From: Thermodesulfobacteriota bacterium
Lineage (GTDB): Bacteria; Desulfobacterota; WTBG01; JAGOGO01
DNA length: 32,000 nt
Assembly: GCA_026625185.1 (NCBI GenBank)
Contig: CP113000.1
Span: forward strand, 2,205,622-2,237,621
Direction of reading: 5' to 3'
Part shown: positions 13,364 to 27,102 of the stretch, in pieces
Numbering within the stretch: the stretch's first letter is position 1
Layout of the letters: each line of letters begins with the position of its first letter
Notes under the pieces: model-generated
Databases searched by the model: none
Seen by the model: the letters and a program-made list of their open reading frames with translations, nothing else
What the model was told of the DNA's origin: nothing
Program-made: the position numbers and the translations under genes

Positions 13364-15349
13364 ATGCCCGAAGCAGAAGATCTTTTAAAAGAAGGGCAAT
13401 CATATTTTTTAGGGGGGGATTATGAAAGAGCGATACCTTATTTTAAAGAAGCAATAGATAAAAATTCTCTTATTGCCGGAGCCTACTTTGGTTTAGGCTC
13501 TGCTTTTAGCAGGCTCGGTCGCTACCCGGAAGCCGTGGAAGCTCTTAAACAAGCTGTAAGCCTGCACCCGGGTGACGCTGAAGCCCACCGTAATCTGGGC
13601 GGGGCTTATTACAACCTCGGCCGCTATCAGGAAGCAGTTGAAGCTCTTAAACAGGCTATCCGCCTGCACCCGGATGATGCCTATGCGCACTGTATTTTGG
13701 GGGGGGCCTATATAAACTTCGGCCGCTCTGAGGAAGCCGTGGAAGCTTTTAAACAGGCTATCAGCCTGAACTCGGGTGAAGCCTACGTCCACTCTCTTCT
13801 GGGCGGGGCTTATATGGACCTGGGCCGTCACCAGGAAGCCGTGGAAGCTTTTAAACAGGCTATCAGCCTGAACCCGGATGATGCAGATGCCTACATTAAC
13901 CTGGGCGAGGCTTATTTCAAGTTCGGCCGTCACCAGGAAGCCGTGGAGGCTATTAAAAAGTCCATCAGCCTGAAACCGGATGATTCCTACGGGCATTGTA
14001 TTTTGGGCGGGGCTTATATGAACCTGGGCCGTCATCAGGATGCCGTGGAAGCTTTTAAACAGGCTATCAGCCTGAACCCGGATGATGCTTACGCCCATTG
14101 TATTCTGGGTGGGGCCTATATGAACCTGGGCCGCTATCAGGAAGCCATGGAAGCTCTTAAACAGGCTATCAGCCTAAATCCTGATGATGTAGATGTAGAT
14201 GCCCACAATAACCTGGCCGAGGCTTATTTCAAACTCGGTCGCCATCTAGAAGCAGTGGAAGCTATTAAGCAGGCTATCGACCTGAAACCGGATTTTGCTG
14301 ATGCACACCGTATTCTGGGCGGTGCTTGTTATAACCTGGGCCGTTATCAGGAAGCAGTGGAAGCTTATAAACAGGTTGTCAGCCTGCATTCGGATGATGC
14401 CTATGCTCACTATAACCTGGGTGAGGCTTATGTCAAGCTGGGCCGGCATCCGGACGCCGTGGAAGCTTATAAACAGGCTATCCGGCTGAACCCGGATTTT
14501 CCTGAAGCCCACTATAAACTGGGAAAGAATTATGACACGCTCGGCCGTCAAAAAGAAGCAGTGGACGCTATTAAACAGGCTATCCGCTTAAACCCGAACA
14601 ATGTAGATGCCCACCATAACCTGGGGGTGATTTATTTCAAGCTGGGCCGGCATGAGGAAGCACTGGAAGCTTATAAACAAGCCGTCCTCCTTAAACCCGC
14701 TGATGCTTACGCCCACTGTATTTTGGGTGGGGCTTATATGAACCCAGGCCGCCATGAGGAAGCGGTGGAAACCTTTAAACAGGCTATTGTTCTTAAACCG
14801 GATGATCCCTACGCCTACTATAACCTGGGGGTGAATTATTTCGAGCTGGACCGCCATCAGGAAGCAGTGGACGCTTTTAAACAGGCTGTCCGCCTAAAGC
14901 CCGATTTTGCCGATGTTCACAATAACCTGGGTAAAAATTATGACACGCTTGGCCGCCATCTGGAGGCTGTGGAAGCTTTTAAACTGGCGGTCCGCCTGAA
15001 ACCCGATTTTGCTGAAGCCCACTATAACCTGGGGGTGAATTATAGCAAGCTCGGTCAGCATAAAGAAGCCGTGGAAGCTTTTAAACAGGCTATCCTTCTG
15101 AACCCGGATGATGCCGATGCCCACTATAACCTGGGTATGGTTTATTTCAAGCTCGGTCGTCATCAGGAAGCAGTGAAAGCTTTTAAACAGACTATCTTTC
15201 TGAAACCGGATTTTGCCGATGCCCACTATAATCTGGGAATAATTTTTTTATTTCTCCACAATAAAGGCTCAGCCCTGGAGGAATATAAAATTTTGAAAGA
15301 TTTGAATCAAGATAAGGGTGATGAGTTGTTTAACGCAATTTATGAATAA
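13364..15349 (+). CDS. TPR repeat protein (~19 consecutive 34-aa TPR units)
   Basis: Near-identical units such as HQEAVEAFKQAISLNPDDAYAHCILGGAYMNLGR repeat along the whole protein. Confidence 0.9.
   Translation: MPEAEDLLKEGQSYFLGGDYERAIPYFKEAIDKNSLIAGAYFGLGSAFSRLGRYPEAVEALKQAVSLHPGDAEAHRNLGGAYYNLGRYQEAVEALKQAIRLHPDDAYAHCILGGAYINFGRSEEAVEAFKQAISLNSGEAYVHSLLGGAYMDLGRHQEAVEAFKQAISLNPDDADAYINLGEAYFKFGRHQEAVEAIKKSISLKPDDSYGHCILGGAYMNLGRHQDAVEAFKQAISLNPDDAYAHCILGGAYMNLGRYQEAMEALKQAISLNPDDVDVDAHNNLAEAYFKLGRHLEAVEAIKQAIDLKPDFADAHRILGGACYNLGRYQEAVEAYKQVVSLHSDDAYAHYNLGEAYVKLGRHPDAVEAYKQAIRLNPDFPEAHYKLGKNYDTLGRQKEAVDAIKQAIRLNPNNVDAHHNLGVIYFKLGRHEEALEAYKQAVLLKPADAYAHCILGGAYMNPGRHEEAVETFKQAIVLKPDDPYAYYNLGVNYFELDRHQEAVDAFKQAVRLKPDFADVHNNLGKNYDTLGRHLEAVEAFKLAVRLKPDFAEAHYNLGVNYSKLGQHKEAVEAFKQAILLNPDDADAHYNLGMVYFKLGRHQEAVKAFKQTIFLKPDFADAHYNLGIIFLFLHNKGSALEEYKILKDLNQDKGDELFNAIYE
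13480..15230 (+). repeat. 102-bp tandem DNA periodicity underlying the TPR array
   Basis: Strings such as caggaagccgtggaagcttttaaacaggctatcagcctgaacccggatgatgc recur every 102 nt with few changes. Confidence 0.8.
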
Positions 15350-17159: not shown

Positions 17160-17750
17160 ATGATAAGAAAAGTAATAGATGCAATCATTAACGTACTCAA
17201 ACGATGGGCGAAAACACTCAGGGTGCTTCTCCCGGGAAAAGAAAGGAGCGATGCCCCGAAAAAGAAAGCGGTAGCCTATACCAGCGATATTATCGTGGCG
17301 CGAACCCGTGAGGTCATCAACCGTGCTGGTCAGAAATCGCTGATCACCCGGTTCGCGGAAGAAAACGGCATTGAAGTCGTGGCGTGGTTCGAGGATGAGG
17401 TATATGATGAAGATGTTTTTACACGTCCGGGCATTCAGAAAATGCTGTCATATAAAAAGCCCTACGATATCTTTTTGGTGGAAAGGGTGTGGGCGCTCAG
17501 CCGGAAGATGTTTATCCTAACCGGTTTTTTTAACGTGCTGGGACAGAAGAAAGTAAGACTTCATATTGCCACCCTTTTATGGGACTGCACCTCACAGATG
17601 GTTAGGAGGCTGTTGGCCGGGAAAGGTGTTGTTCCCGCAAAAGTGGTCGAACCGGCTATGGCAGGTAAAGCGTTTCGGATAGTTGAGGTCCGAAGACCGG
17701 AAAAGCCGCACTCCTTAATCGCCCCGCCGATACGAATCCCTGCCGTTTAA
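17160..17750 (+). CDS. Resolvase/invertase N-terminal-domain-like protein (serine recombinase fold, no HTH seen, possibly inactive)
   Basis: AVAYTSD...RFAEENGIEVVAWFEDEV...TRPGIQKMLSYKKPYDIFLVERVWALSR parallels the resolvase pattern YxRVSxxxQ...G..v...f.D.g.SG...RPgl..ll......d.vvv..ldRlsR. The conserved Arg before the catalytic Ser is missing. Confidence 0.4.
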   Translation: MIRKVIDAIINVLKRWAKTLRVLLPGKERSDAPKKKAVAYTSDIIVARTREVINRAGQKSLITRFAEENGIEVVAWFEDEVYDEDVFTRPGIQKMLSYKKPYDIFLVERVWALSRKMFILTGFFNVLGQKKVRLHIATLLWDCTSQMVRRLLAGKGVVPAKVVEPAMAGKAFRIVEVRRPEKPHSLIAPPIRIPAV

Positions 17751-17833: not shown

Positions 17834-18331
17834 TCAGACCTTTCCTCTTGCCAGGAGATCGACCCGTTTCAGCAAGGCTGGGACCCGATGAGAGCCGTGC
17901 ATCACCTTGATTCTTCCTGCCGCCGTATAAGGATCTACTCCGGCAGAGGTCACATACAAAGGCCTTTTGCTCTCCCCTCTGAAAACTTCCACTCCGAATG
18001 AGTCCCGGTACTGTGATTTTGCCACGCCAATGACGCGGGTCCTCCCCGCAAAGAACTCAAAGAGATGCTTGCCAAGACCGGGCCGGTCTCCGAGCATCAC
18101 ATAACCATCAATGAGCATCTCTTCGGGAGTTTCATTGAATTGCTCAACCACCCTGAGAATACAGGGAAGCTCGCGTCGGTAAAACTGGCCGGGTAGGTAT
18201 TGAGTGACTCCGTCGGTGAGTCCGACGTATTCTAAGGCAGGTTCGGGATCGGTATATTGGTGGAAAAGCACCGCCCCCGCCGATGCTCGTCCGTCAGCAA
18301 AGTAGTGAACATCAAAAGCTGCGATCATCAT
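17834..18331 (-). CDS. Endonuclease V family protein (short, 165 aa)
   Basis: Aligns by eye to E. coli Nfi. IAAFDVHY matches IAGADVGF. YLPGQFYRRELPCIL matches YIPGFLSFREYPALL. LIDGYVMLGDRPGLGKH matches VFVDGHGISHPRRLGVASH. Further matches are IGVAKS, PLYVTSAG and RVPALLKRVD. Confidence 0.7.
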   Translation of the reverse strand: MMIAAFDVHYFADGRASAGAVLFHQYTDPEPALEYVGLTDGVTQYLPGQFYRRELPCILRVVEQFNETPEEMLIDGYVMLGDRPGLGKHLFEFFAGRTRVIGVAKSQYRDSFGVEVFRGESKRPLYVTSAGVDPYTAAGRIKVMHGSHRVPALLKRVDLLARGKV

Positions 18332-18542
18332 TCACCTTATCTCGGCGCTCTGCATGGGGCGTAGACTGCGATAATTGAGCCAGGTCAGGGAACAATCAGG
18401 TCACCGATAGTACGATATGCGTTATTACTCTGAACTATGGGGTTAAAAATTCAAGGGGATCACTAAAATGATTTTTGATTTTCTGTAACAATGGCAGTTA
18501 AATACTTTTATTCTCACCAAATCTGGAGGAGGGATGAAAAAA

Positions 18543-18895
18543 ATCGCGCCCCATGCGGGCGCGTGGATGGAAACCAGTTAGTCTGTTTTTCAGAAATCCT
18601 AGTTCATACCTTGCGTCCCATCTGGGTGCTTTGAATGAAACTCATTCACAAGATTCCCGGAACCCAGATTCATCCTTTGTGTCCCTTGTAGGCGCAAGGA
18701 TTGAAACGAGCTCGTTGAGTTCCAGGGACCCTTGTTCATCCGCCGCATCCCTGGCTTGCGCAGGGATTTAAACTAGTCCCTCCACTCCCGGGAGATCTAG
18801 TTCATCCGCGCGTCCCATGTGGGTGCTTTTAATTTTAATATATACCCAAATGATATTTTGTCAAATCGCGCCCACGCGCGCGTGGATGGAAAAAC
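18543..18895 (+). CRISPR. Orphan CRISPR-repeat-derived tandem array, copy 1 (6 repeat-like units, ~66-nt period, no cas genes)
   Basis: The first unit atcgcgccccatgcgggcgcgtggatggaaac and the last unit atcgcgcccacgcgcgcgtggatggaaaaac resemble the type I-C consensus GTCGCGCCCC....GGGCGCGTGGATTGAAAC. Internal units end at 18641, 18707, 18773 and 18839 and are degenerate. The spacer-like segments share 3' halves (..ttcccggaacccagattcatcc / ..ttccagggacccttgttcatcc / ..ctcccgggagatctagttcatcc). Confidence 0.5.
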
Positions 18896-18933
18896 AAAAA
18901 ACAGTTGGAAGTGGCTGATTTTTTTCTTTTTTC

Positions 18934-19075
18934 TTGACTTTTTTCTCCTCATAGGTTAAAAACAGAAAAATATTTACTTAAAAAGAGAATATTTTTGAGA
19001 TGACTGCGAGGAAAAAATCCAATGAGCGTAAAGAAAGGCCGAATTACCAAATGAAAAGGTGATGGTCCTTTTTTG
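18934..19075 (+). ncRNA. Promoter plus small RNA/leader module, copy B (upstream of the permease gene)
   Basis: TTGACT (18934-18939), 17-bp spacer, TAAAAA (18957-18962). The core is ttgagatgactgcgaggaaaaaatccaatgagcgtaaagaaaggccgaattaccaaatgaaaaggtgatggtcc followed by tttttt. Confidence 0.4.
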
Positions 19076-19184: not shown

Positions 19185-20756
19185 TTGGATTTCTCAATGT
19201 ACGTGGGCATACCTTTTGTTCAAAGAGACTATATCCGCAATCAACACAGATTCTGGGGAGAAATAACCGCTTTTCTCGCTCTGTTTTTTGATAACGTCGG
19301 AACGCTGATATTTTTCAGTGCGATTCTTGTTTTCACTTTCAACTATCCCCCCGATATTATTCTGACGCGCATGATCCCGGGTACAGCTGTCGGAATTTGC
19401 GTAGGCGATCTTGTCTATACGTGGTTCGCCATCCGTTTGAGACAAAAATACGGACACGCCGATGTCACGGCGATGCCCCTGGGTATCGATACACCTTCAA
19501 CCATCGGCATTGCCTATGCTGTCATGGGCCCCGCGTATATCGCCACTCATGACGCGCAGCTCACGTGGCACATCGGCATGGCCACTCTTTTCATGATCGG
19601 CGTTGTTAAAATATTTACCTCTTTTTTCGGTGGATGGGTTCAGCGCATCATTCCCACCGCGGGGCTGCTGGGGCCGCTCGCCGGAATTGGGCTTCTGCTG
19701 CTCGGATTTCTGCCATTGCTCGAAATATTCAATGAGGCTGTCATTGGCATGATCGCCATGGGTCTTATCTTTTCGGCGCTCATGAGCAAGCTGAAGCTGC
19801 CGGGCCGCTTCCCCGGTGTTCTTGCCGCAGTTCTTCTCGGCACGGGTATTCATTTTGCTCTGGGATATGGCGGATACCTTCCGGAATTCACCGCACCGAC
19901 TCTGAAAATGAATTTTTTTTTACCCGCTTTTTCTATCGACTTTTTCAAAACACTGCCACAAAGCATTCAGTATCTGACCATCGCCATCCCTTTCGGCATC
20001 CTGACGATAATCGGCGGCATCAATAATACGGAAAGTGCCCGTCTGGCAGGCGACGACTACCGGACGAGAGATATCTTGCTTACGGAGGCATTCTCATCGC
20101 TGATCGCGGCTTTCTTCGGTGGTGTGGCGCAAACCACGCCCTATATCGGCCATCCGGCATACAAAAAGATGGGCGCGACCTGGTGGTATACACTTCTGAC
20201 AGGACTACTTGTCGGCATCGGCTCCGTGGTCGGACTGCTTTCACTTTTTGTCAGTGTAATTCCACGGGCAGTTATTGGGCCAATTTTTATCTTTATCGGT
20301 TTTGAAATTATTCGTCAGGCCTACAAGGATTCGCCGCCGGCTCATTCTCCTGCGGTAAGCTTAAGCTTTCTGCCTGTTGTCGCCAGTATGGTGCTAATAA
20401 TTCTGGGCCAGTTCATGGGCGCAATGGACGCCACGCCGGATAAATTGCCGTTGCGTTTGCAAATCATGCATCAATCACTGACAATGCTCAGTAACGGCTT
20501 TATTCTAACGGGGCTTCTCTGGGGCAGTATGCTGGCTTTTCTTATTGATCACAAAGCGCGACAGGCAGCTCTTTGCAGTGCTGTCTGCGCCGTGTTGACT
20601 CTCTTCGGCATTATCCATTCGGTGATGCCTAGCGGTGAACTCTACCTGCCCTGGCTGATTACAACTCATGCCCACTACATGCTCGCTGTGGCTTACTTTG
20701 CGCTATCCTGCATCCTGCTTTTGTTGACCGGAAAAACAGATAAAACAGAGGTATAA
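19185..20756 (+). CDS. Polytopic permease, probably NCS2/AzgA-related nucleobase transporter family
   Basis: 523 aa, almost entirely hydrophobic helices. Segments such as DVTAMPLGIDTPSTIG and TTPYIGHPAYKKMGA recall xanthine/uracil-type permease relatives. An ATG at 19197 is an alternative to the TTG at 19185. Clearly more GC-rich than its flanks. Confidence 0.55.
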   Translation: MDFSMYVGIPFVQRDYIRNQHRFWGEITAFLALFFDNVGTLIFFSAILVFTFNYPPDIILTRMIPGTAVGICVGDLVYTWFAIRLRQKYGHADVTAMPLGIDTPSTIGIAYAVMGPAYIATHDAQLTWHIGMATLFMIGVVKIFTSFFGGWVQRIIPTAGLLGPLAGIGLLLLGFLPLLEIFNEAVIGMIAMGLIFSALMSKLKLPGRFPGVLAAVLLGTGIHFALGYGGYLPEFTAPTLKMNFFLPAFSIDFFKTLPQSIQYLTIAIPFGILTIIGGINNTESARLAGDDYRTRDILLTEAFSSLIAAFFGGVAQTTPYIGHPAYKKMGATWWYTLLTGLLVGIGSVVGLLSLFVSVIPRAVIGPIFIFIGFEIIRQAYKDSPPAHSPAVSLSFLPVVASMVLIILGQFMGAMDATPDKLPLRLQIMHQSLTMLSNGFILTGLLWGSMLAFLIDHKARQAALCSAVCAVLTLFGIIHSVMPSGELYLPWLITTHAHYMLAVAYFALSCILLLLTGKTDKTEV

Positions 20757-20794
20757 ATTGGGGCGACCGGATACAGCGAAACCGAATAGGGCAA

Positions 20795-21041
20795 GGTCTC
20801 CGAGCAACACATAACCATCAATGAGCATCTCTTCGGGAGTTTCATTGAATTGCTCAAGCAACCTGAGAATACAGGGAAGCTCGCGTCGGTAAAACTGGCC
20901 GGGTATGTATTGAGTGACTTCGTCTGTGAGTCCGACGTATTCTAAGGCAGGTTCGGGATCGGTATAATGGTGGGAAAGCACCGCCCCCGTCGATGCTCGT
21001 CCGTCAGCAAAGTAGTGAACATCAAAAGCTGCGATCATCAT
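20795..21041 (-). pseudogene. Truncated second copy of the EndoV-like gene (N-terminal ~82 codons only)
   Basis: The track ORF 20703-21041 matches the 17834-18331 protein from MMIAAFDVHYFADGRAS through ...LIDGYVLLGD. Homology then ends at the repeat boundary (~20795) and an unrelated tail follows. Confidence 0.75.
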
Positions 21042-21254
21042 TCACCTTATCTCGGCGCTCTGCATGGGGCGTAGACTGCGATAATTGAGCCAGGTCAGGG
21101 AACAATCAGGTCACCGATAGTACGATATGCGTTATTACTCTGAACTATGGGGTTAAAAATTCAAGGGGAAAAACTATTATTGATTATTGATTTTCTCTAA
21201 CAATGGCAGCTGAATAGTTTTATTCTCACCAAATCTGGAGGAGGGATGAAAAAA

Positions 21255-21596
21255 ATCGCGCCCCATGCGGGCGCGTGGATGGAAACCAGTTAGTCTGTTT
21301 TTCAGAAATCCTAGTTCATCCCTTGCGTCCCATTTGGGTGCTTTGATTGAAACTCGTCAACCTGGTTCCAGAAACCTCAATTTATTTTTTGCGTCTCCTG
21401 TGGGCGCAAGTTTTTCAGTTCCAGGAACTCTGGTTCAACCGCCGCATCCCTGGCTCGCGCAAGAATCTAAACTAGTCCCTTCACTCCCAGGAGCTCCAGT
21501 TCATCCGCGCGTCCCATGCGGGTGCTTTTAGTTATAATATATACATCAAATGAAATTTTGTCAAATCGCGACCAGTGCGGGTGCGTGAATTGAAAC
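21255..21596 (+). CRISPR. Orphan CRISPR-repeat-derived tandem array, copy 2
   Basis: The first unit is identical to copy 1 (atcgcgccccatgcgggcgcgtggatggaaac). The last unit is atcgcgaccagtgcgggtgcgtgaattgaaac. Interior units are homologous to copy 1 but carry many substitutions and a ~10-nt deletion. Confidence 0.5.
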
Positions 21597-21637
21597 ACAA
21601 AAAAACAGTTGGAAGTGGCTGATTTTTTTCTTTTTTC

Positions 21638-21781
21638 TTGACTTTTTTCTCCTCATAGGTTAAAAACAAAAAAATATTTACTTAAAAAGAGAATATTTTT
21701 GAGATGACTGCGAGGAAAAAATCCAATGAGCGTAAAGAAAGGCCGAATTGCCAAATTAAAAGGTGATGGGCCTTTGTTTTC
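21638..21781 (+). ncRNA. Promoter plus small RNA/leader module, copy C (upstream of the SIR2 gene)
   Basis: TTGACT (21638-21643), 17-bp spacer, TAAAAA (21661-21666). The core is nearly identical to copy B, ending ggtgatgggcctttgtttt. It lies ~95 nt before the ATG at 21875. Confidence 0.4.
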
Positions 21782-21874
21782 TTTGAGAAGCACCCAAAAA
21801 TAGATGTTTGAATTAACTATCAAGTCAGACAGAGATAAACAATCAGTTTAACGAATTGGTGAAGAGGTATTTTG

Positions 21875-22798
21875 ATGAATATTGATCTTGTTCCCGACAT
21901 TAAAAAATATCCCCATATTTATGACTCCCACAAGAATAATAAGTTAATCATATTTGTTGGTGCGGGGATGTCGTCCCTTTGGTGATGCAAGAGATGGAAG
22001 GACATGGCGGTTTCTCTAATTGAGTCTTGTTATGAGCTTGAGGCTATAGATTATTGGGCACGGGAAAATCTTTTAACTAAATATGCCATTTCGCCACGCA
22101 AACTGATAACGATCGCCAAAAGTATACTTGGTGAAAAAAAGTACTTGGAGGTTTTAAAAAGAACTCTTCAAATTTGGCCTGAACGAAAGGGAAAATTACC
22201 GAATCTTTTTAACAACCTATTAGCCCTTAACGCTATTTATATCACTACTAATATTGATGACCATTTTTCAGGCCTGTTTGAAAAAAAAGATGTGCATTTC
22301 GAACAAAATGATTTCTCTTCCTCAGTTCTTAAACCAAAAAATATTATCCATTTACACGGAATTATTAATAATCCCCATAGTCTTGTTTTAACTATTGATG
22401 AATATGTTGAACGTTATCAAAATAATCATTTTAGAAAATTTTTAGAATATATCTTTTTTAATGAAGACTATTGCTTTCTTTTTGTTGGTTATGGTGTTGA
22501 TGAAATGGAAATTATTGACTTCATGATTGAGAAATACAGCACTGGGCCAGAGACCTTGAAAAAGCTTATCTATCGCTATTATATTTTATTACCTTTTTTC
22601 CAGAATGAAGAAACCTTAATGAGATATGAACAATTTTATTTTGATCAAATCAATATGACGGTGATTCCTTATGCGATTAACGCAAAAGGATATGATCAAT
22701 TAAATGAGGTAATCGCAACATGGAGAGAAGAATTTGAGAAACAGGGGCAACGAGATGAATTTTATATATTTAATAAAATCATTGAGAAAAATTTATGA
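21875..22798 (+). CDS. SIR2_2-family (defence-type sirtuin/NADase-like) protein, interrupted by an in-frame TGA at codon 37
   Basis: The track ORF starts at 22004. The same frame opens at the ATG at 21875 (gaagagg SD 6-12 nt upstream) and encodes MNIDLVPDIKKYPHIYDSHKNNKLIIFVGAGMSSLW-TGA-CKRWKDMAV.... Motifs present: IIFVGAGMS (Rossmann GAG), ITTNIDDHF (catalytic Asn box), IIHLHGII (catalytic His 35 residues after the Asn) and FLFVGYGVDEMEI. Confidence 0.75.
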
Positions 22799-25700
22799 AC
22801 ATACTTAATGCAGAAGAACAACAAGTACTTTATTTGATAAAAACGGATGCTGATCAGGCTAATTATTTTTTTACTCAAGCAAAATCATTAAAATGGTTTT
22901 ATCCTCTGAAAGATCAAGGGTATTTTTGTCCTGATCACATCCCCTACGATTCAAATGGCAATGCCCTGTTTTGGAATGTTCTCGATTATCTTAAGCGAGT
23001 TTCCGAACAGGTTGAACAGAATTCCGTATACGGTGAAGAATTAATTAACATCATCGGTAGCGTTGTTTACTTCTCGCAAAATGAAAAACAGATCAATAAC
23101 TATCATATCTGGAAGTACTGCGTAAAAATCCTAAATAATCTTCCTGTCGCGATTATTAAAAAATATCTCACGATCGAAGAATTTCGCTCGTGGCTTTCGG
23201 TTTGGACTACTTTTTCTGAGGGAAAAGTTCTACCCATAACACTAATTGGGGGAAGTCTTTTGCCAAAATTTCTTGCCGGAGATTCAACAATTGAATACGT
23301 CGAGACCATTATTGACGTAATCACGTGCATCAAGCTTAGCGGGAAATTTCATCCACTAACGAAGGTTGACGAGATTATTTTAGCCTACAGTTCATACTGG
23401 ATCAGGGATGCTTTTAAAAAAAATTATGAACTAATAGGCCAAAAATGTTCTTTGAACGCTATTTATATTCTTGCTGACAAATTAAAGAAGGTTTTAGAAC
23501 ATAAACAAAAAAAACATTCTGGCAACATAGAGATTGGCGAGGATGTTTATCACATTGAAGTATCAAGAGTCCCCGCAGAAAAATTAAAAGCAGGTGAAAT
23601 TGGATTTCAAGACGGGCAATTCCAGTGTGTGGTTAAACAGTTTTCTCGGCAACAGCTTCAGGATGTTGGCGGGGATCACAGTTACTGGGCGCTTTATAAA
23701 ACTGAACCGCAGATTGAGGTAAAGCAATTTAGTTTTACAGCTATGAGGCAAGAAGCATTCTTGAAGACTATTATAGAAAACTTGCCTCGGGATATTGAGT
23801 GGACTAAGTCTACAAATTTTGACGAAAAACTAAAATATATATTTAAGGGACTTCATGCGGATTATTCTGAAATATGGTTAAAATCCATTGCGAGCGGCGG
23901 TCAAGATTATGAAAGGGACGCCGAAGAAGTTTTAGCCATCATTTTACGCGATATTTTGCTGGCAAAATGTGAAGCAAATAAATCTGAAGGCAAGAAGATA
24001 CTATGTTCGTTTCTAAGCGATCATTATCAATTCCCTATTTTTAGAAGGTTTGTTTTGCTTTGTATTGATAAATACTGGATCAATTTCTATGATCTTTTTG
24101 ATAAATTTTTTGAAATAGTTCCAACTGCCTTGGAAGAATCGGCTTACGAGGTAGAGTTGTATGATATTTTAGTCAACCACAATCAGGAATTTAACCTCGG
24201 CCTTAGAACGAATCTGAAAGAACTAATTGATAATGTCCCTGCATACTATGTCAAAGAAGGTGAAAAACTAACAGAGTATTGGAAATACAAATGGCTCTCC
24301 CCATTGCGGCACAATCCCGATTTTTCCGCCTTGTATGAAAAAGCAAAACAAAAAACCGAACCAAAAGATGGTAAGCCTTATGAACCCAGGCGTTTAAGCT
24401 TTGAAGCTGGTGTGGTCAGTCATAAGTCGCCAATCTCCAAAGAAGAGATTTTGGAAATGCCTGTTTCCGAATTTGTGAAGTATTTAAGTGAATTTAAAGG
24501 AGCAGACTTTTGGCGTGGGGCTTTTGATGGGGAGCCCGACAAAGAAGGACTTGCCGAGGCGTTTCACGCGGCGGTAAAAGAGAATCCCAAGAAATTTACT
24601 GACGAAATAGATGCTTTTTGGGGTGTTGATTATTTTTATCTACATAAGGGATTGTTTTGGGGATTTAGGGAAGCGTGGACTGCTAAAAATGAACTTGATT
24701 GGGAAAAAATTTTTAATTTCATTCTAAAATATTTCAAGCGAAATAAAGAATGTATTCTAAAAGAAGCATTTCAGGCTCAAGGAAACGATAGCGGGGAGGG
24801 TAAATATATTTATCTTGTCGATGATGTTGTTGGCTTAATCGCTGATGGATGCAGGGATGATGCACGAGCGTTTGATTTAAAGTATTTCGATAAGGCAAAT
24901 CAAATTTTTGAATTGGTGTTACCCTTACTTAAAGGGGAAAAAAATCCTGACACACAAAGAGATGCCTTGAGCTATGCCATGAATACAACGCTTGGTAAGA
25001 CAATTGAGGCGTATATTTCTTTTGCGTTGAGGGCAACAGGGGCCACAAAGGAAAAAGAAGAGAATTGGGGAGAGATAAAGTTTGAACGTTTTTTTACTAA
25101 AGGTGGTATAGAGGCATACATATGGTTTGGGTGTTATCTCCCACAGATGAAATATTTGGATGAGAAGTACACGGAAGAAAAAATAAAACTTTTTGCCTTA
25201 AAAAAAGCAGATGACTTTAAATGGCAGATGTTTATGGAAGGGTATCTGTTCGCCCACAAAGTATATCCAGATCTATATTCTTTAATGCGGGCTCATTATA
25301 TAATGGCCTTAGAAAATAAAATATTCGAAGAACGGATAGATCGTCGGCTTGTTTCCCATATTGCTTTGGGATATTTATATTACGGAGAGAGCCTCCAGGA
25401 AAAAAATCCAGATGGGAACTCCAGTTTATTCTGGAAGATGCTAACCGAAGCTGGTGCGAGAGGTAAAAGTGATCGATGGTTAGAGATAGCTGGATTTTTT
25501 TGGTCGGAAGGAGAGGGGATGGTAAGGAAAACGAAAAAGGATGTTGAAGGGAAATCTTCCGAAGAAATTAAAAAGAAAATTTTGGATTTCTGGTGTTGGA
25601 CTTATAACCAACAGAAACTCGCAGAAGAGAACTTGGGTGATAGATACAATGCTTTCTTAGAACGAATGGCAAAATTAACCATTTTTTTAGACTCGATTGA

Positions 25701-26007
25701 TGAAGAAAACGAAAAGTGGTTGCTTCTATGCGCCCCGCATGTTGCTCGTCAGTATGATGAGATGTTCTTTATTGAATCCTTAACCAAATTCGAAGACCTA
25801 GAAAGCATTAAGCGGATCGGTAAAATTTTTTGGCAGGTATTGGAGAATGCTACCCCTACCTTTAAACAGGAAAATATAGAGCTTATTGTCCGTAGAATTT
25901 TTGAAGTCGCCCCTAATATTGCTGAGGATATTTGCAATATTTACGGCAGGCGAGGTGTTCATTTCCTTAGGCCTATTTGGGAAGAATATCAGAAAAAGAA
26001 ATATTGA
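22795..26007 (+). CDS. Large (1070 aa) protein of unknown function, partner of the SIR2 gene
   Basis: Uninterrupted 3.2-kb ORF whose ATG overlaps the SIR2 stop (ATGA at 22795-22798). Rich in W/F/Y/K/E. No Walker A, nuclease, protease or TM motif found by eye. Composition suggests a helical repeat-like protein. Confidence 0.8.
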   Translation: MNILNAEEQQVLYLIKTDADQANYFFTQAKSLKWFYPLKDQGYFCPDHIPYDSNGNALFWNVLDYLKRVSEQVEQNSVYGEELINIIGSVVYFSQNEKQINNYHIWKYCVKILNNLPVAIIKKYLTIEEFRSWLSVWTTFSEGKVLPITLIGGSLLPKFLAGDSTIEYVETIIDVITCIKLSGKFHPLTKVDEIILAYSSYWIRDAFKKNYELIGQKCSLNAIYILADKLKKVLEHKQKKHSGNIEIGEDVYHIEVSRVPAEKLKAGEIGFQDGQFQCVVKQFSRQQLQDVGGDHSYWALYKTEPQIEVKQFSFTAMRQEAFLKTIIENLPRDIEWTKSTNFDEKLKYIFKGLHADYSEIWLKSIASGGQDYERDAEEVLAIILRDILLAKCEANKSEGKKILCSFLSDHYQFPIFRRFVLLCIDKYWINFYDLFDKFFEIVPTALEESAYEVELYDILVNHNQEFNLGLRTNLKELIDNVPAYYVKEGEKLTEYWKYKWLSPLRHNPDFSALYEKAKQKTEPKDGKPYEPRRLSFEAGVVSHKSPISKEEILEMPVSEFVKYLSEFKGADFWRGAFDGEPDKEGLAEAFHAAVKENPKKFTDEIDAFWGVDYFYLHKGLFWGFREAWTAKNELDWEKIFNFILKYFKRNKECILKEAFQAQGNDSGEGKYIYLVDDVVGLIADGCRDDARAFDLKYFDKANQIFELVLPLLKGEKNPDTQRDALSYAMNTTLGKTIEAYISFALRATGATKEKEENWGEIKFERFFTKGGIEAYIWFGCYLPQMKYLDEKYTEEKIKLFALKKADDFKWQMFMEGYLFAHKVYPDLYSLMRAHYIMALENKIFEERIDRRLVSHIALGYLYYGESLQEKNPDGNSSLFWKMLTEAGARGKSDRWLEIAGFFWSEGEGMVRKTKKDVEGKSSEEIKKKILDFWCWTYNQQKLAEENLGDRYNAFLERMAKLTIFLDSIDEENEKWLLLCAPHVARQYDEMFFIESLTKFEDLESIKRIGKIFWQVLENATPTFKQENIELIVRRIFEVAPNIAEDICNIYGRRGVHFLRPIWEEYQKKKY

Positions 26008-26352
26008 TACCAAGAGGTCATAAAATCGAAAACTTTTTGGGGAAGCATCCGGGTAGGTCTACACTGCAAGTGAAGTAAATCTTCGCGGGATAAACGTTTG
26101 ACAAAATATATAAATTGAATAACTCATCAAGAGAAAAGAGGGACGTTGACCAATATTTTCAAAATTCGGGTGAAGTTGAGGACTAAAAAGTACGAAGGGA
26201 TTGCGTCATTTCCCCTCGCAACTATCTGCCTGCTTTCATTTTTTAAATATAAAGGGGGTTATTATGGAAAAGAATGAAGTTGTAGTGGTAGATGTTCAAA
26301 TGTCTATGTGGTCAATGATGCGCGACGGTCATCAGTAACTTTCAAAACTGAT

Positions 26353-27102
26353 ATGAGACGTAGAACAATAATGGTATTGACCCTTTTAGTATTCGTTGCC
26401 CTTTTGGTGGCGCTCCGGTATTTGCCGCTTGAGAGAATATTGCTTTTTTATCCCAGTCACCATTCCCCCAATAACAGCCTTACACCCTGGGTTAAGAATG
26501 GCGAAATCATCGGTTACGCGCGCAAGATAGAATCGCCAAAAAATGTATGGCTGATGCTTCATGGAAACGCCGGGCAGGCATCCGACCGCTTATACGCAGT
26601 GCCTTGTTTTTCAAGTGACGATTCGGTCTTTATTCTCGAATATCCGGGATACGGTGATCGCAACGGTATTCCATCGAAAGAGACTTTTAATCGCGCGGCT
26701 CAAGAAGCCTACCTTTTTCTCAAAGAAACGTATCCTCACCTTCCGGTCTGTGTAGTCGCGGAATCGATTGGATCAGGACCGGCTTCGTCCCTTGCCGGCC
26801 TGGCTCAAAAACCGGATAAGTTCGTTTTTATCGTTCCTTTTGATAAACTTTCTTCGGTAGGCGCAGATCACTTTCCCTCCATTCTGGTGTATCTGATACT
26901 TAGGAGCAATTGGGATAATATAACGGCTCTTTCAAATTATAAAGGCCCGATTGATATTTTTGGCGCTGAAGCCGACACTATTATCCCGGTGCGGCACGCG
27001 AAGGCTCTTGGGGCTGCTCTCCCTACCGCGAAACTGACAATCATTGAGGGTGGGCATAATGATTGGTCTTTTGAGGGTCGCGTGCAGATAAGGAATCCAT
27101 AA
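26353..27102 (+). CDS. Alpha/beta hydrolase with N-terminal membrane anchor
   Basis: Contains an HGNAG oxyanion-type motif, the nucleophile elbow AESIGSG and a C-terminal GGHND. I prefer the start MRRRTIMVLTLLVFVALLVAL at 26353 over the GTG at 26308. Confidence 0.75.
   Translation: MRRRTIMVLTLLVFVALLVALRYLPLERILLFYPSHHSPNNSLTPWVKNGEIIGYARKIESPKNVWLMLHGNAGQASDRLYAVPCFSSDDSVFILEYPGYGDRNGIPSKETFNRAAQEAYLFLKETYPHLPVCVVAESIGSGPASSLAGLAQKPDKFVFIVPFDKLSSVGADHFPSILVYLILRSNWDNITALSNYKGPIDIFGAEADTIIPVRHAKALGAALPTAKLTIIEGGHNDWSFEGRVQIRNP

Follow-up and report, generated by a model that had tools for sequence, protein, structure and literature searches.

A 32,000-nucleotide (nt) stretch from the genome of a Thermodesulfobacteriota bacterium (GenBank assembly GCA_026625185.1, contig CP113000.1, positions 2,205,622 to 2,237,621 of the forward strand; hereafter the window) contains two overlapping genes. 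One encodes a SIR2-type protein predicted to degrade nicotinamide adenine dinucleotide (NAD+), i.e. an NADase effector, and the other a large protein of 1070 amino acids (aa), hereafter the sensor. This locus is very probably a two-gene form, produced by gene fission, of the anti-phage system DSR1 (defence-associated sirtuin 1), in which the SIR2 copy is most likely a pseudogene. The system type is known, and this copy is probably dead. Because both proteins match the Dsr1 model and are collinear with fused DSR1-type proteins, the pair is read as DSR1 cut where the effector ends and the sensor begins. It was filed as a split variant and not as canonical DSR1, since a stop codon separates the two open reading frames (ORFs) and this separation is conserved among relatives.

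Assignment of the gene pair to DSR1

The PADLOC-DB model Dsr1 (PDLC04166, 1227 positions) was matched by both window proteins. Residues 3-292 of the SIR2 protein aligned with model positions 6-288 (E 6.4e-79, 264 bits), and residues 341-1066 of the sensor with positions 531-1225 (E 5.9e-103); a further stretch of the sensor was also matched. When one genome per species was scanned, relatives were also found in which both parts form a single chain, namely a 1361-aa protein from a metagenome-assembled genome (MAG) of Clostridia (L034) and a protein of Methanothrix harundinacea (L041), which measures 1234 aa from its first ATG and spans the Dsr1 model from end to end with 1172 bits. When the window SIR2 protein and sensor were joined, the resulting chain was collinear with both of these fused proteins, and the junction (...IIEKNL/MNILNAEEQQVLYLIK...) was located inside the continuous alignment. 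Sensor residues 10-1064 aligned with residues 318-1354 of L034 (E 3e-136). A third fused protein, the 1324-aa ‘SIR2 family protein’ WP_001093518.1 from Bacillus cereus-group plasmids, likewise gave a Dsr1 match and its N-terminus matched the window SIR2 protein; in a tblastn comparison with Bacillus plasmid SIR2 proteins 99% of the sensor was covered. Identity of the window SIR2 protein to the N-termini of the fused proteins was 37% (L034), 33% (L041) and 30% (Bacillus protein). Judged by these alignments, the sensor is the C-terminal three quarters of a single-chain DSR1. DSR1 was originally defined as a single-gene system with one polypeptide, whereas here the stop codon at 22796-22798 divides SIR2 and sensor.

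The product of the SIR2 gene was recognized by Pfam as SIR2_2 (E 2e-16). Its motif residues are GAG (29-31), TTN (124-126) and LHG (160-162), and T125, N126, D128, H161 and G162 are invariant in an alignment of 25 homologues. The distance from N126 to H161 is 35 residues. In a sequence search of the PDB only human FAM118B was matched, and weakly so; the PADLOC scan showed weak similarity to the SIR2 domains of ThsA and LmuA. The coordinates of all features are given in Table 1.

Table 1. Features of the SIR2-sensor locus, with positions counted from the first nucleotide of the window
Feature	Position	Strand	Basis
SIR2 (SIR2_2-type) gene for the predicted NADase effector of a split DSR1-type system; 307 codons with a TGA inside at codon 37	21875..22798	+	Translation, Pfam, PADLOC
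In-frame TGA in place of near-invariant Gly37 (homologues: LWGCKRW)	21983..21985	+	SIR2 alignment, other assemblies
264-aa remnant ORF from Met44, without the GAG NAD-binding loop	22004..22798	+	Longest uninterrupted ORF; publicly annotated ‘SIR2 family protein’
ATGA stop/start overlap of SIR2 and sensor genes (putative translational coupling)	22795..22798	+	ORF boundaries; similar junctions in 20 other split loci
DSR1-type sensor gene, intact; 1070 aa, predicted alpha-solenoid with beta-rich insertion at residues ~179-315	22795..26007	+	PADLOC, homologues, AlphaFold2 model
Putative effector-docking / cassette-exchange segment (first ~100 sensor codons)	22795..23094	+	Co-variation with upstream SIR2 subtype
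Second copy of ~1 kb direct duplication, which borders the AT-rich SIR2-sensor block on the left and belongs to the context, not to the system	20795..21780		First copy at 18085-19074

For the 1070-aa protein no Pfam family exceeded the threshold, a sub-threshold match to Nup188_N being the only one, and a PDB sequence search gave no match either with the protein alone or with a 40-sequence profile. An AlphaFold2 (AF2) model calculated from the 40-sequence alignment (mean predicted local distance difference test score 85.9, predicted template modelling score (pTM) 0.55) was a mostly helical alpha-solenoid. A Foldseek comparison of this model with the PDB returned generic karyopherin/HEAT solenoids only, with template modelling (TM) scores of ~0.2. 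The predicted structure fits a repeat-protein sensor without a specific assignment. In a large protein collection 170 sensor homologues were found, which fall into two length classes of ~1066-1100 aa and ~1204-1256 aa. A scan of 21400-26400 for promoters and terminators gave site numbers no higher than in shuffled sequence.

Recurrence of the split and state of the SIR2 gene

The conservation of the two-gene arrangement was studied at two levels. A species-level survey, with one genome per species, comprised 31 loci. A SIR2 ORF was located directly upstream of the sensor in 18 of them, and these were all of the complete stand-alone sensors. Two loci encoded SIR2 fused to the sensor, five sensors carried a non-SIR2 N-terminal extension of ~85-170 aa, and the remaining six were fragments or were cut by a contig end. 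At the junctions of 20 other split loci the genes overlapped by ATGA or TAATG or lay no more than 15 nt apart. In addition, 1.84 billion cluster representatives (50% identity) were searched with a profile, which returned 3147 relatives (E <= 1e-3). The 150 best of these comprised 91 stand-alone sensors, 8 SIR2-fused sensors, 26 with another N-terminal extension of ~140-185 aa and 25 fragments. Hence two-gene loci are the prevailing form in this clade, and the split is no chance event of a single genome. The SIR2 side gave the same picture: about 50 homologues of the window SIR2 protein were found, every one of them stand-alone and nearly all 302-310 aa long, and they have the C-terminal residues ...NL in common. 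Many of them are encoded on contigs equal in size to contigs that bear homologues of the partner.

The relatives with separate effector and sensor genes come mostly from MAGs labelled Omnitrophota or Planctomycetia, with a few other lineages. Some sensor homologues lie directly 3' of type I restriction-modification (R-M) operons (hsdR-Fic or RhuM-hsdM-hsdS), and this adjacency therefore supports a defence role of the family. ‘Split proteins’ are mentioned in the methods of published work on Dsr1/Avs7 sensors. As DSR1 is catalogued and studied as a single protein while many relatives have separate genes for effector and sensor, rules that expect one gene and filters on length or coverage may undercount or misname split relatives. 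The split form also offers a natural system for studying the control of SIR2 in trans by a DSR1-type sensor and for finding the sensor segment to which the effector docks.

Of an original prediction on this gene pair, made from the letters of the window alone, the observations were confirmed and the interpretation was borne out in part. The GAG, TTN and LHG motifs with their 35-residue Asn-His spacing are present in the 307-codon translation, and the ATGA overlap and the 1070-aa ORF were confirmed. The proposal of a split version of the DSR logic, with SIR2 effector and large sensor as two genes, agrees with the Dsr1 matches and the collinearity, and the suggested check of whether the two genes stay adjacent gave a SIR2 gene upstream of every complete stand-alone sensor of the survey. 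Likewise, Pfam and PADLOC scans showed neither a HerA nor a pAgo type of partner. The spacing given for DSR2 was inexact, since N133 and H171 of DSR2 are 38 residues apart, and the description of the partner as an orphan or a new family was overturned by its match to the C-terminal region of Dsr1.

The prediction had also noticed the stop at codon 37. This stop is real, but its weight was underestimated: it replaces a near-invariant Gly beside the GAG loop and recurs in other assemblies. The LWGCKRW motif was found in 24 aligned SIR2 homologues, with Gly37 kept in at least 90%, and no stop occurred at this position among the aligned homologues. TGA differs by one base from GGA, and the alignment indicates that it is most likely a GGA-to-TGA nonsense mutation. 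It is located eight codons after the GAG NAD-binding motif and separates the GAG loop from the remaining protein; because codon 37 is TGA, the longest open SIR2 ORF begins only at Met44. N126, D128 and H161 are retained despite this upstream stop. Identical bases were found at codon 37 in three further assemblies (L009, L010 and L011), comprising one NCBI Thermodesulfobacteriota MAG and two JGI metagenome contigs, so the TGA is not a one-off sequencing error. Downstream of it, no stable hairpin or hairpin resembling a selenocysteine insertion sequence (SECIS) exceeded the shuffled controls (z 0.25), and the window contained no matches to Rfam families. TGA also serves as the terminator of the SIR2 gene itself and of four other long ORFs in the window. 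On these grounds genetic codes 25 and 4 were ruled out for TGA.

At highly conserved positions the SIR2 protein deviates in 0 of 87 cases and the sensor in 12 of 219, the latter being within the range of the homologues, and for this reason the inactivation of SIR2 looks recent. Since the TGA hits near-invariant Gly37, recurs and is accompanied by no recoding signal, the SIR2 effector gene is most likely a recently inactivated pseudogene that would have lost its function, whereas the sensor gene is intact in the window. A public entry labelled ‘SIR2 family protein’ from a Thermodesulfobacteriota MAG (P0121) is 100% identical to the 264-aa remnant. The public annotation of 22004-22798 carries no pseudogene flag, and the adjoining gene is annotated as a hypothetical protein. 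Because the remnant is annotated in this way, automated counts of defence systems could be misled and score a dead SIR2 copy as intact.

Lesions were also seen in two related sequences. A metagenome contig equivalent to window positions 22648-26324 (L007) is 99.7% identical, with 11 substitutions, 9 of them in 22848-23070; two substitutions create stops at sensor residues 45 and 92, which reflect either further decay in a sister strain or low-quality sequence. In a related genome (L008) the sensor is frameshifted at a homopolymer that has changed from A8 to A7, and this may be an error of long-read assembly.

Given the disabling TGA at codon 37 and these lesions in close relatives (two nonsense codons in L007, the frameshift in L008), the split could be seen as a local artefact, i.e. 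one fused DSR1 gene broken by mutation into two pseudogene fragments. We consider this highly improbable. The junction of SIR2 stop and sensor start, with a proper ATG and the ATGA overlap, recurs in many distant genomes, the SIR2 homologues share their ...NL end and their length, and stand-alone sensors far outnumber fused ones among the best 150 representatives. Because the junctions are conserved, a local artefact is effectively refuted. Even less credible is the idea that the pair constitutes a novel NAD-depletion system of two genes whose sensors form an orphan family of their own. It would account for the lack of a Pfam model for the 1070-aa protein, for the lack of a solved structure matched by sequence and for the generic solenoids returned by the fold search, but PADLOC Dsr1 matches sensor and SIR2 protein alike, effector and sensor align in order with the fused DSR1-type proteins, and split proteins are already mentioned in the published Dsr1/Avs7 methods.

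UGA is the leakiest of the stop codons, and the system might still be functional if the UGA at codon 37 were read through or recoded as Gly, Trp or selenocysteine (Sec), or if it held the dosage of a toxic NADase down as a leaky ‘safety catch’. Apart from the stop, neither gene shows excess deviation at conserved sites, and the same TGA allele occurs in several independent assemblies and hence is not strongly counter-selected. Nevertheless, we regard a functional copy as unlikely: the aligned homologues lack a stop at codon 37, neither a SECIS-like hairpin nor an Rfam match was found, TGA is used as a regular terminator in the window, and the near-identical assemblies may sample one population with a fixed neutral loss. 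A split DSR1 with an inactivated SIR2 gene thus remains the preferred reading, and several points weigh against it. Between the sensor and the fused DSR1-type proteins identity amounts to just 24-31%, and the structures of DSR1, DSR2 and Avs7 were not matched when Foldseek was run against the PDB, in which no relative was found by sequence either. Membership in DSR1 is drawn from the PADLOC model and the fused homologues, not from the experimentally tested DSR1 of B. subtilis or E. coli. We infer by analogy that the separate proteins form a SIR2-sensor complex and deplete NAD+, and the complete absence of further decay in either gene leaves room for low-level UGA read-through by which some function would be kept.

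Effector modularity and the sensor N-terminus

At least three SIR2 subtypes were found ahead of closely related sensors, of ~305 aa (the window type), ~395 aa and ~327 aa. Sensor residues 1-100 in the window and in L012-L031 cluster by SIR2 subtype and not by overall sensor similarity. In 13 loci, pairs with the same SIR2 subtype showed a sensor identity of 61% in residues 1-100 and of 55% beyond them, compared with 46% and 58%, respectively, in pairs with different subtypes; in a label permutation the association between residues 1-100 and SIR2 subtype was significant (p = 2e-4). This clustering suggests co-adaptation at an effector-docking interface. Because residues 1-100 co-vary with the SIR2 subtype, we infer that the N-terminus of the sensor is an effector-docking segment which is exchanged together with SIR2 as a cassette.

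The related genome L008 may illustrate such an exchange. Its right flank is syntenic with the window, and L008:8162-12559 occupies the same chromosomal site as window 21875-26007 with a different SIR2 subtype. The two sensors are 82% identical over residues 209-1070 and 65% identical in the first 209 residues, and the L008 SIR2 protein belongs to the 395-aa subtype and is unalignable with the window SIR2 at the DNA level. From these comparisons the difference between L008 and the window looks like an effector cassette swap.

The longer sensors form a sister class, represented by L005:6001-9678 (P0043) and 33 other homologues of 1204-1256 aa. Their N-terminal domain of ~165-190 aa is conserved, consists of helices only, is not of the SIR2 type and contains the motifs HAAREIDGGLRD and AHRxGxWK. 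A SIR2 gene is absent upstream of this class, and in L005 and L006 the sensor lies directly 3' of a type I R-M hsdS gene. The ~165-aa N-terminal domain of the 1220-aa homologues had no Pfam or PDB sequence match, and its AF2 model gave weak, though recurrent, matches to the HEPN-domain fold that were not significant (E >= 0.66).

A more far-reaching proposal, which we put forward tentatively and as rather doubtful, is that the two-gene form is the main DSR1-type architecture in this clade and that effectors are swapped along with the first ~100 sensor codons as a portable docking adaptor. If so, splitting would allow at least three SIR2 subtypes and the ~165-aa non-SIR2 domain to be swapped as cassettes, and the window and syntenic L008 would record one effector swap at a single chromosomal site. 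In a bolder version, the recurrent UGA at Gly37 would be tolerated and act as a leaky brake on the toxic NADase. The predominance of the split and the apparent swap of effector cassettes with a co-varying sensor N-terminus are of moderate specialist interest.

Genomic context, proposed mechanism and known systems

The GC content is 31.8% in the SIR2 gene and 37.5% in the sensor gene, as compared to 47-50% in neighbouring genes. Upstream of the SIR2 gene lie a resolvase-like ORF (17160-17747) and fragments of endonuclease V. The ~1 kb direct duplication consists of four collinear blocks with 88-97% identity and flanks the gene for a 523-aa membrane protein (19185-20756) without Pfam match. Each copy begins within an endonuclease V-like ORF (17837-18331 and 20706-21041), both of which look truncated, and the second copy ends ~95 nt ahead of the SIR2 start. 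The downstream genes are housekeeping genes for a hydrolase, an SBP_bac_5 binding protein and a xanthine/uracil permease, and are syntenic with L008. In ten neighbouring ORFs no specific PADLOC defence family was detected, only generic TPR-type matches (13364-15349). Thus, of the predicted context, the AT-rich block, recombinase-like gene, repeats and fragments were found, but the designation as a defence island was not upheld, as no specific PADLOC family lies nearby; the locus is a two-gene AT-rich islet and not a large defence island. The ORF at 13364-15349 encodes a 661-aa protein that consists almost entirely of TPR repeats (17 TPR_1 stretches), with a 102-nt tandem duplication in the 3' part of the gene (repeat 15002-15205).

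In an intact split system, coupled translation would yield the SIR2 and sensor products, which would associate non-covalently, probably via the sensor N-terminus (first ~100 residues). Once the sensor solenoid had bound a structural protein of a phage, the SIR2 NADase activity would be released or assembled, and the resulting drop in cellular NAD+ would block phage replication. DSR1 is known to lower NAD+ during infection (bioRxiv 10.1101/2021.12.14.472415). The Dsr1 sensor is homologous to the TPR sensor of Avs7, and the phage major capsid protein triggers both (PMC12803255; Nature 2026, PMC13581612). By analogy with E. coli Dsr1, the major capsid protein would be the most likely trigger here as well. 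Capsid-protein activation is known solely for SeAvs7 and EcDsr1 (PMC12803255, PMC13581612), and because the window sensor shares only 24-31% identity with fused DSR1-type proteins, it may respond to a trigger other than the capsid protein.

Among known systems, SIR2-HerA, SPARSA (SIR2/pAgo) and Thoeris (ThsA/ThsB) resemble the window pair in that a SIR2 effector is encoded apart from its sensor or regulator. Unlike in those systems, the partner in the window is a DSR1 sensor, and Pfam and PADLOC scans of the 1070-aa protein revealed no HerA ATPase, pAgo/APAZ or TIR domains. In DSR2, similarly, an N-terminal SIR2 NADase is under the control of a large alpha-solenoid sensor to which a structural protein of the phage binds. 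However, DSR2 is a single chain, its Asn-His spacing is 38 and not 35, and neither a DSR2 model match (PADLOC, E <= 1) nor a DSR2 chain in the PDB sequence and fold searches was obtained.

Effector domains are swapped among Avs7/Dsr1-type sensors (PMC12803255, PMC13581612), which are large, all-helical repeat sensors with exchangeable effectors, and the sensors related to that of the window likewise bear three SIR2 subtypes or a non-SIR2 N-terminal domain. A bilobed, sharply bent sensor is a trait of the Avs7/Dsr1 clade. The AF2 model of the window sensor, with its pTM of 0.55, is a mostly helical solenoid and matched generic solenoids only. A STAND NTPase is absent from the window pair. Compared with DSR1 itself (Gao et al. 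2020; Garb et al. 2022), which is one chain of ~1230-1370 aa, the window encodes two polypeptides from overlapping genes, identity to the fused proteins is 24-37%, and the SIR2 gene holds a nonsense codon. Nevertheless, a homologous SIR2 domain and a large helical C-terminal region are present in the same order and are collinear with DSR1, and by this analogy the expected output of the pair would be depletion of NAD+ on infection.

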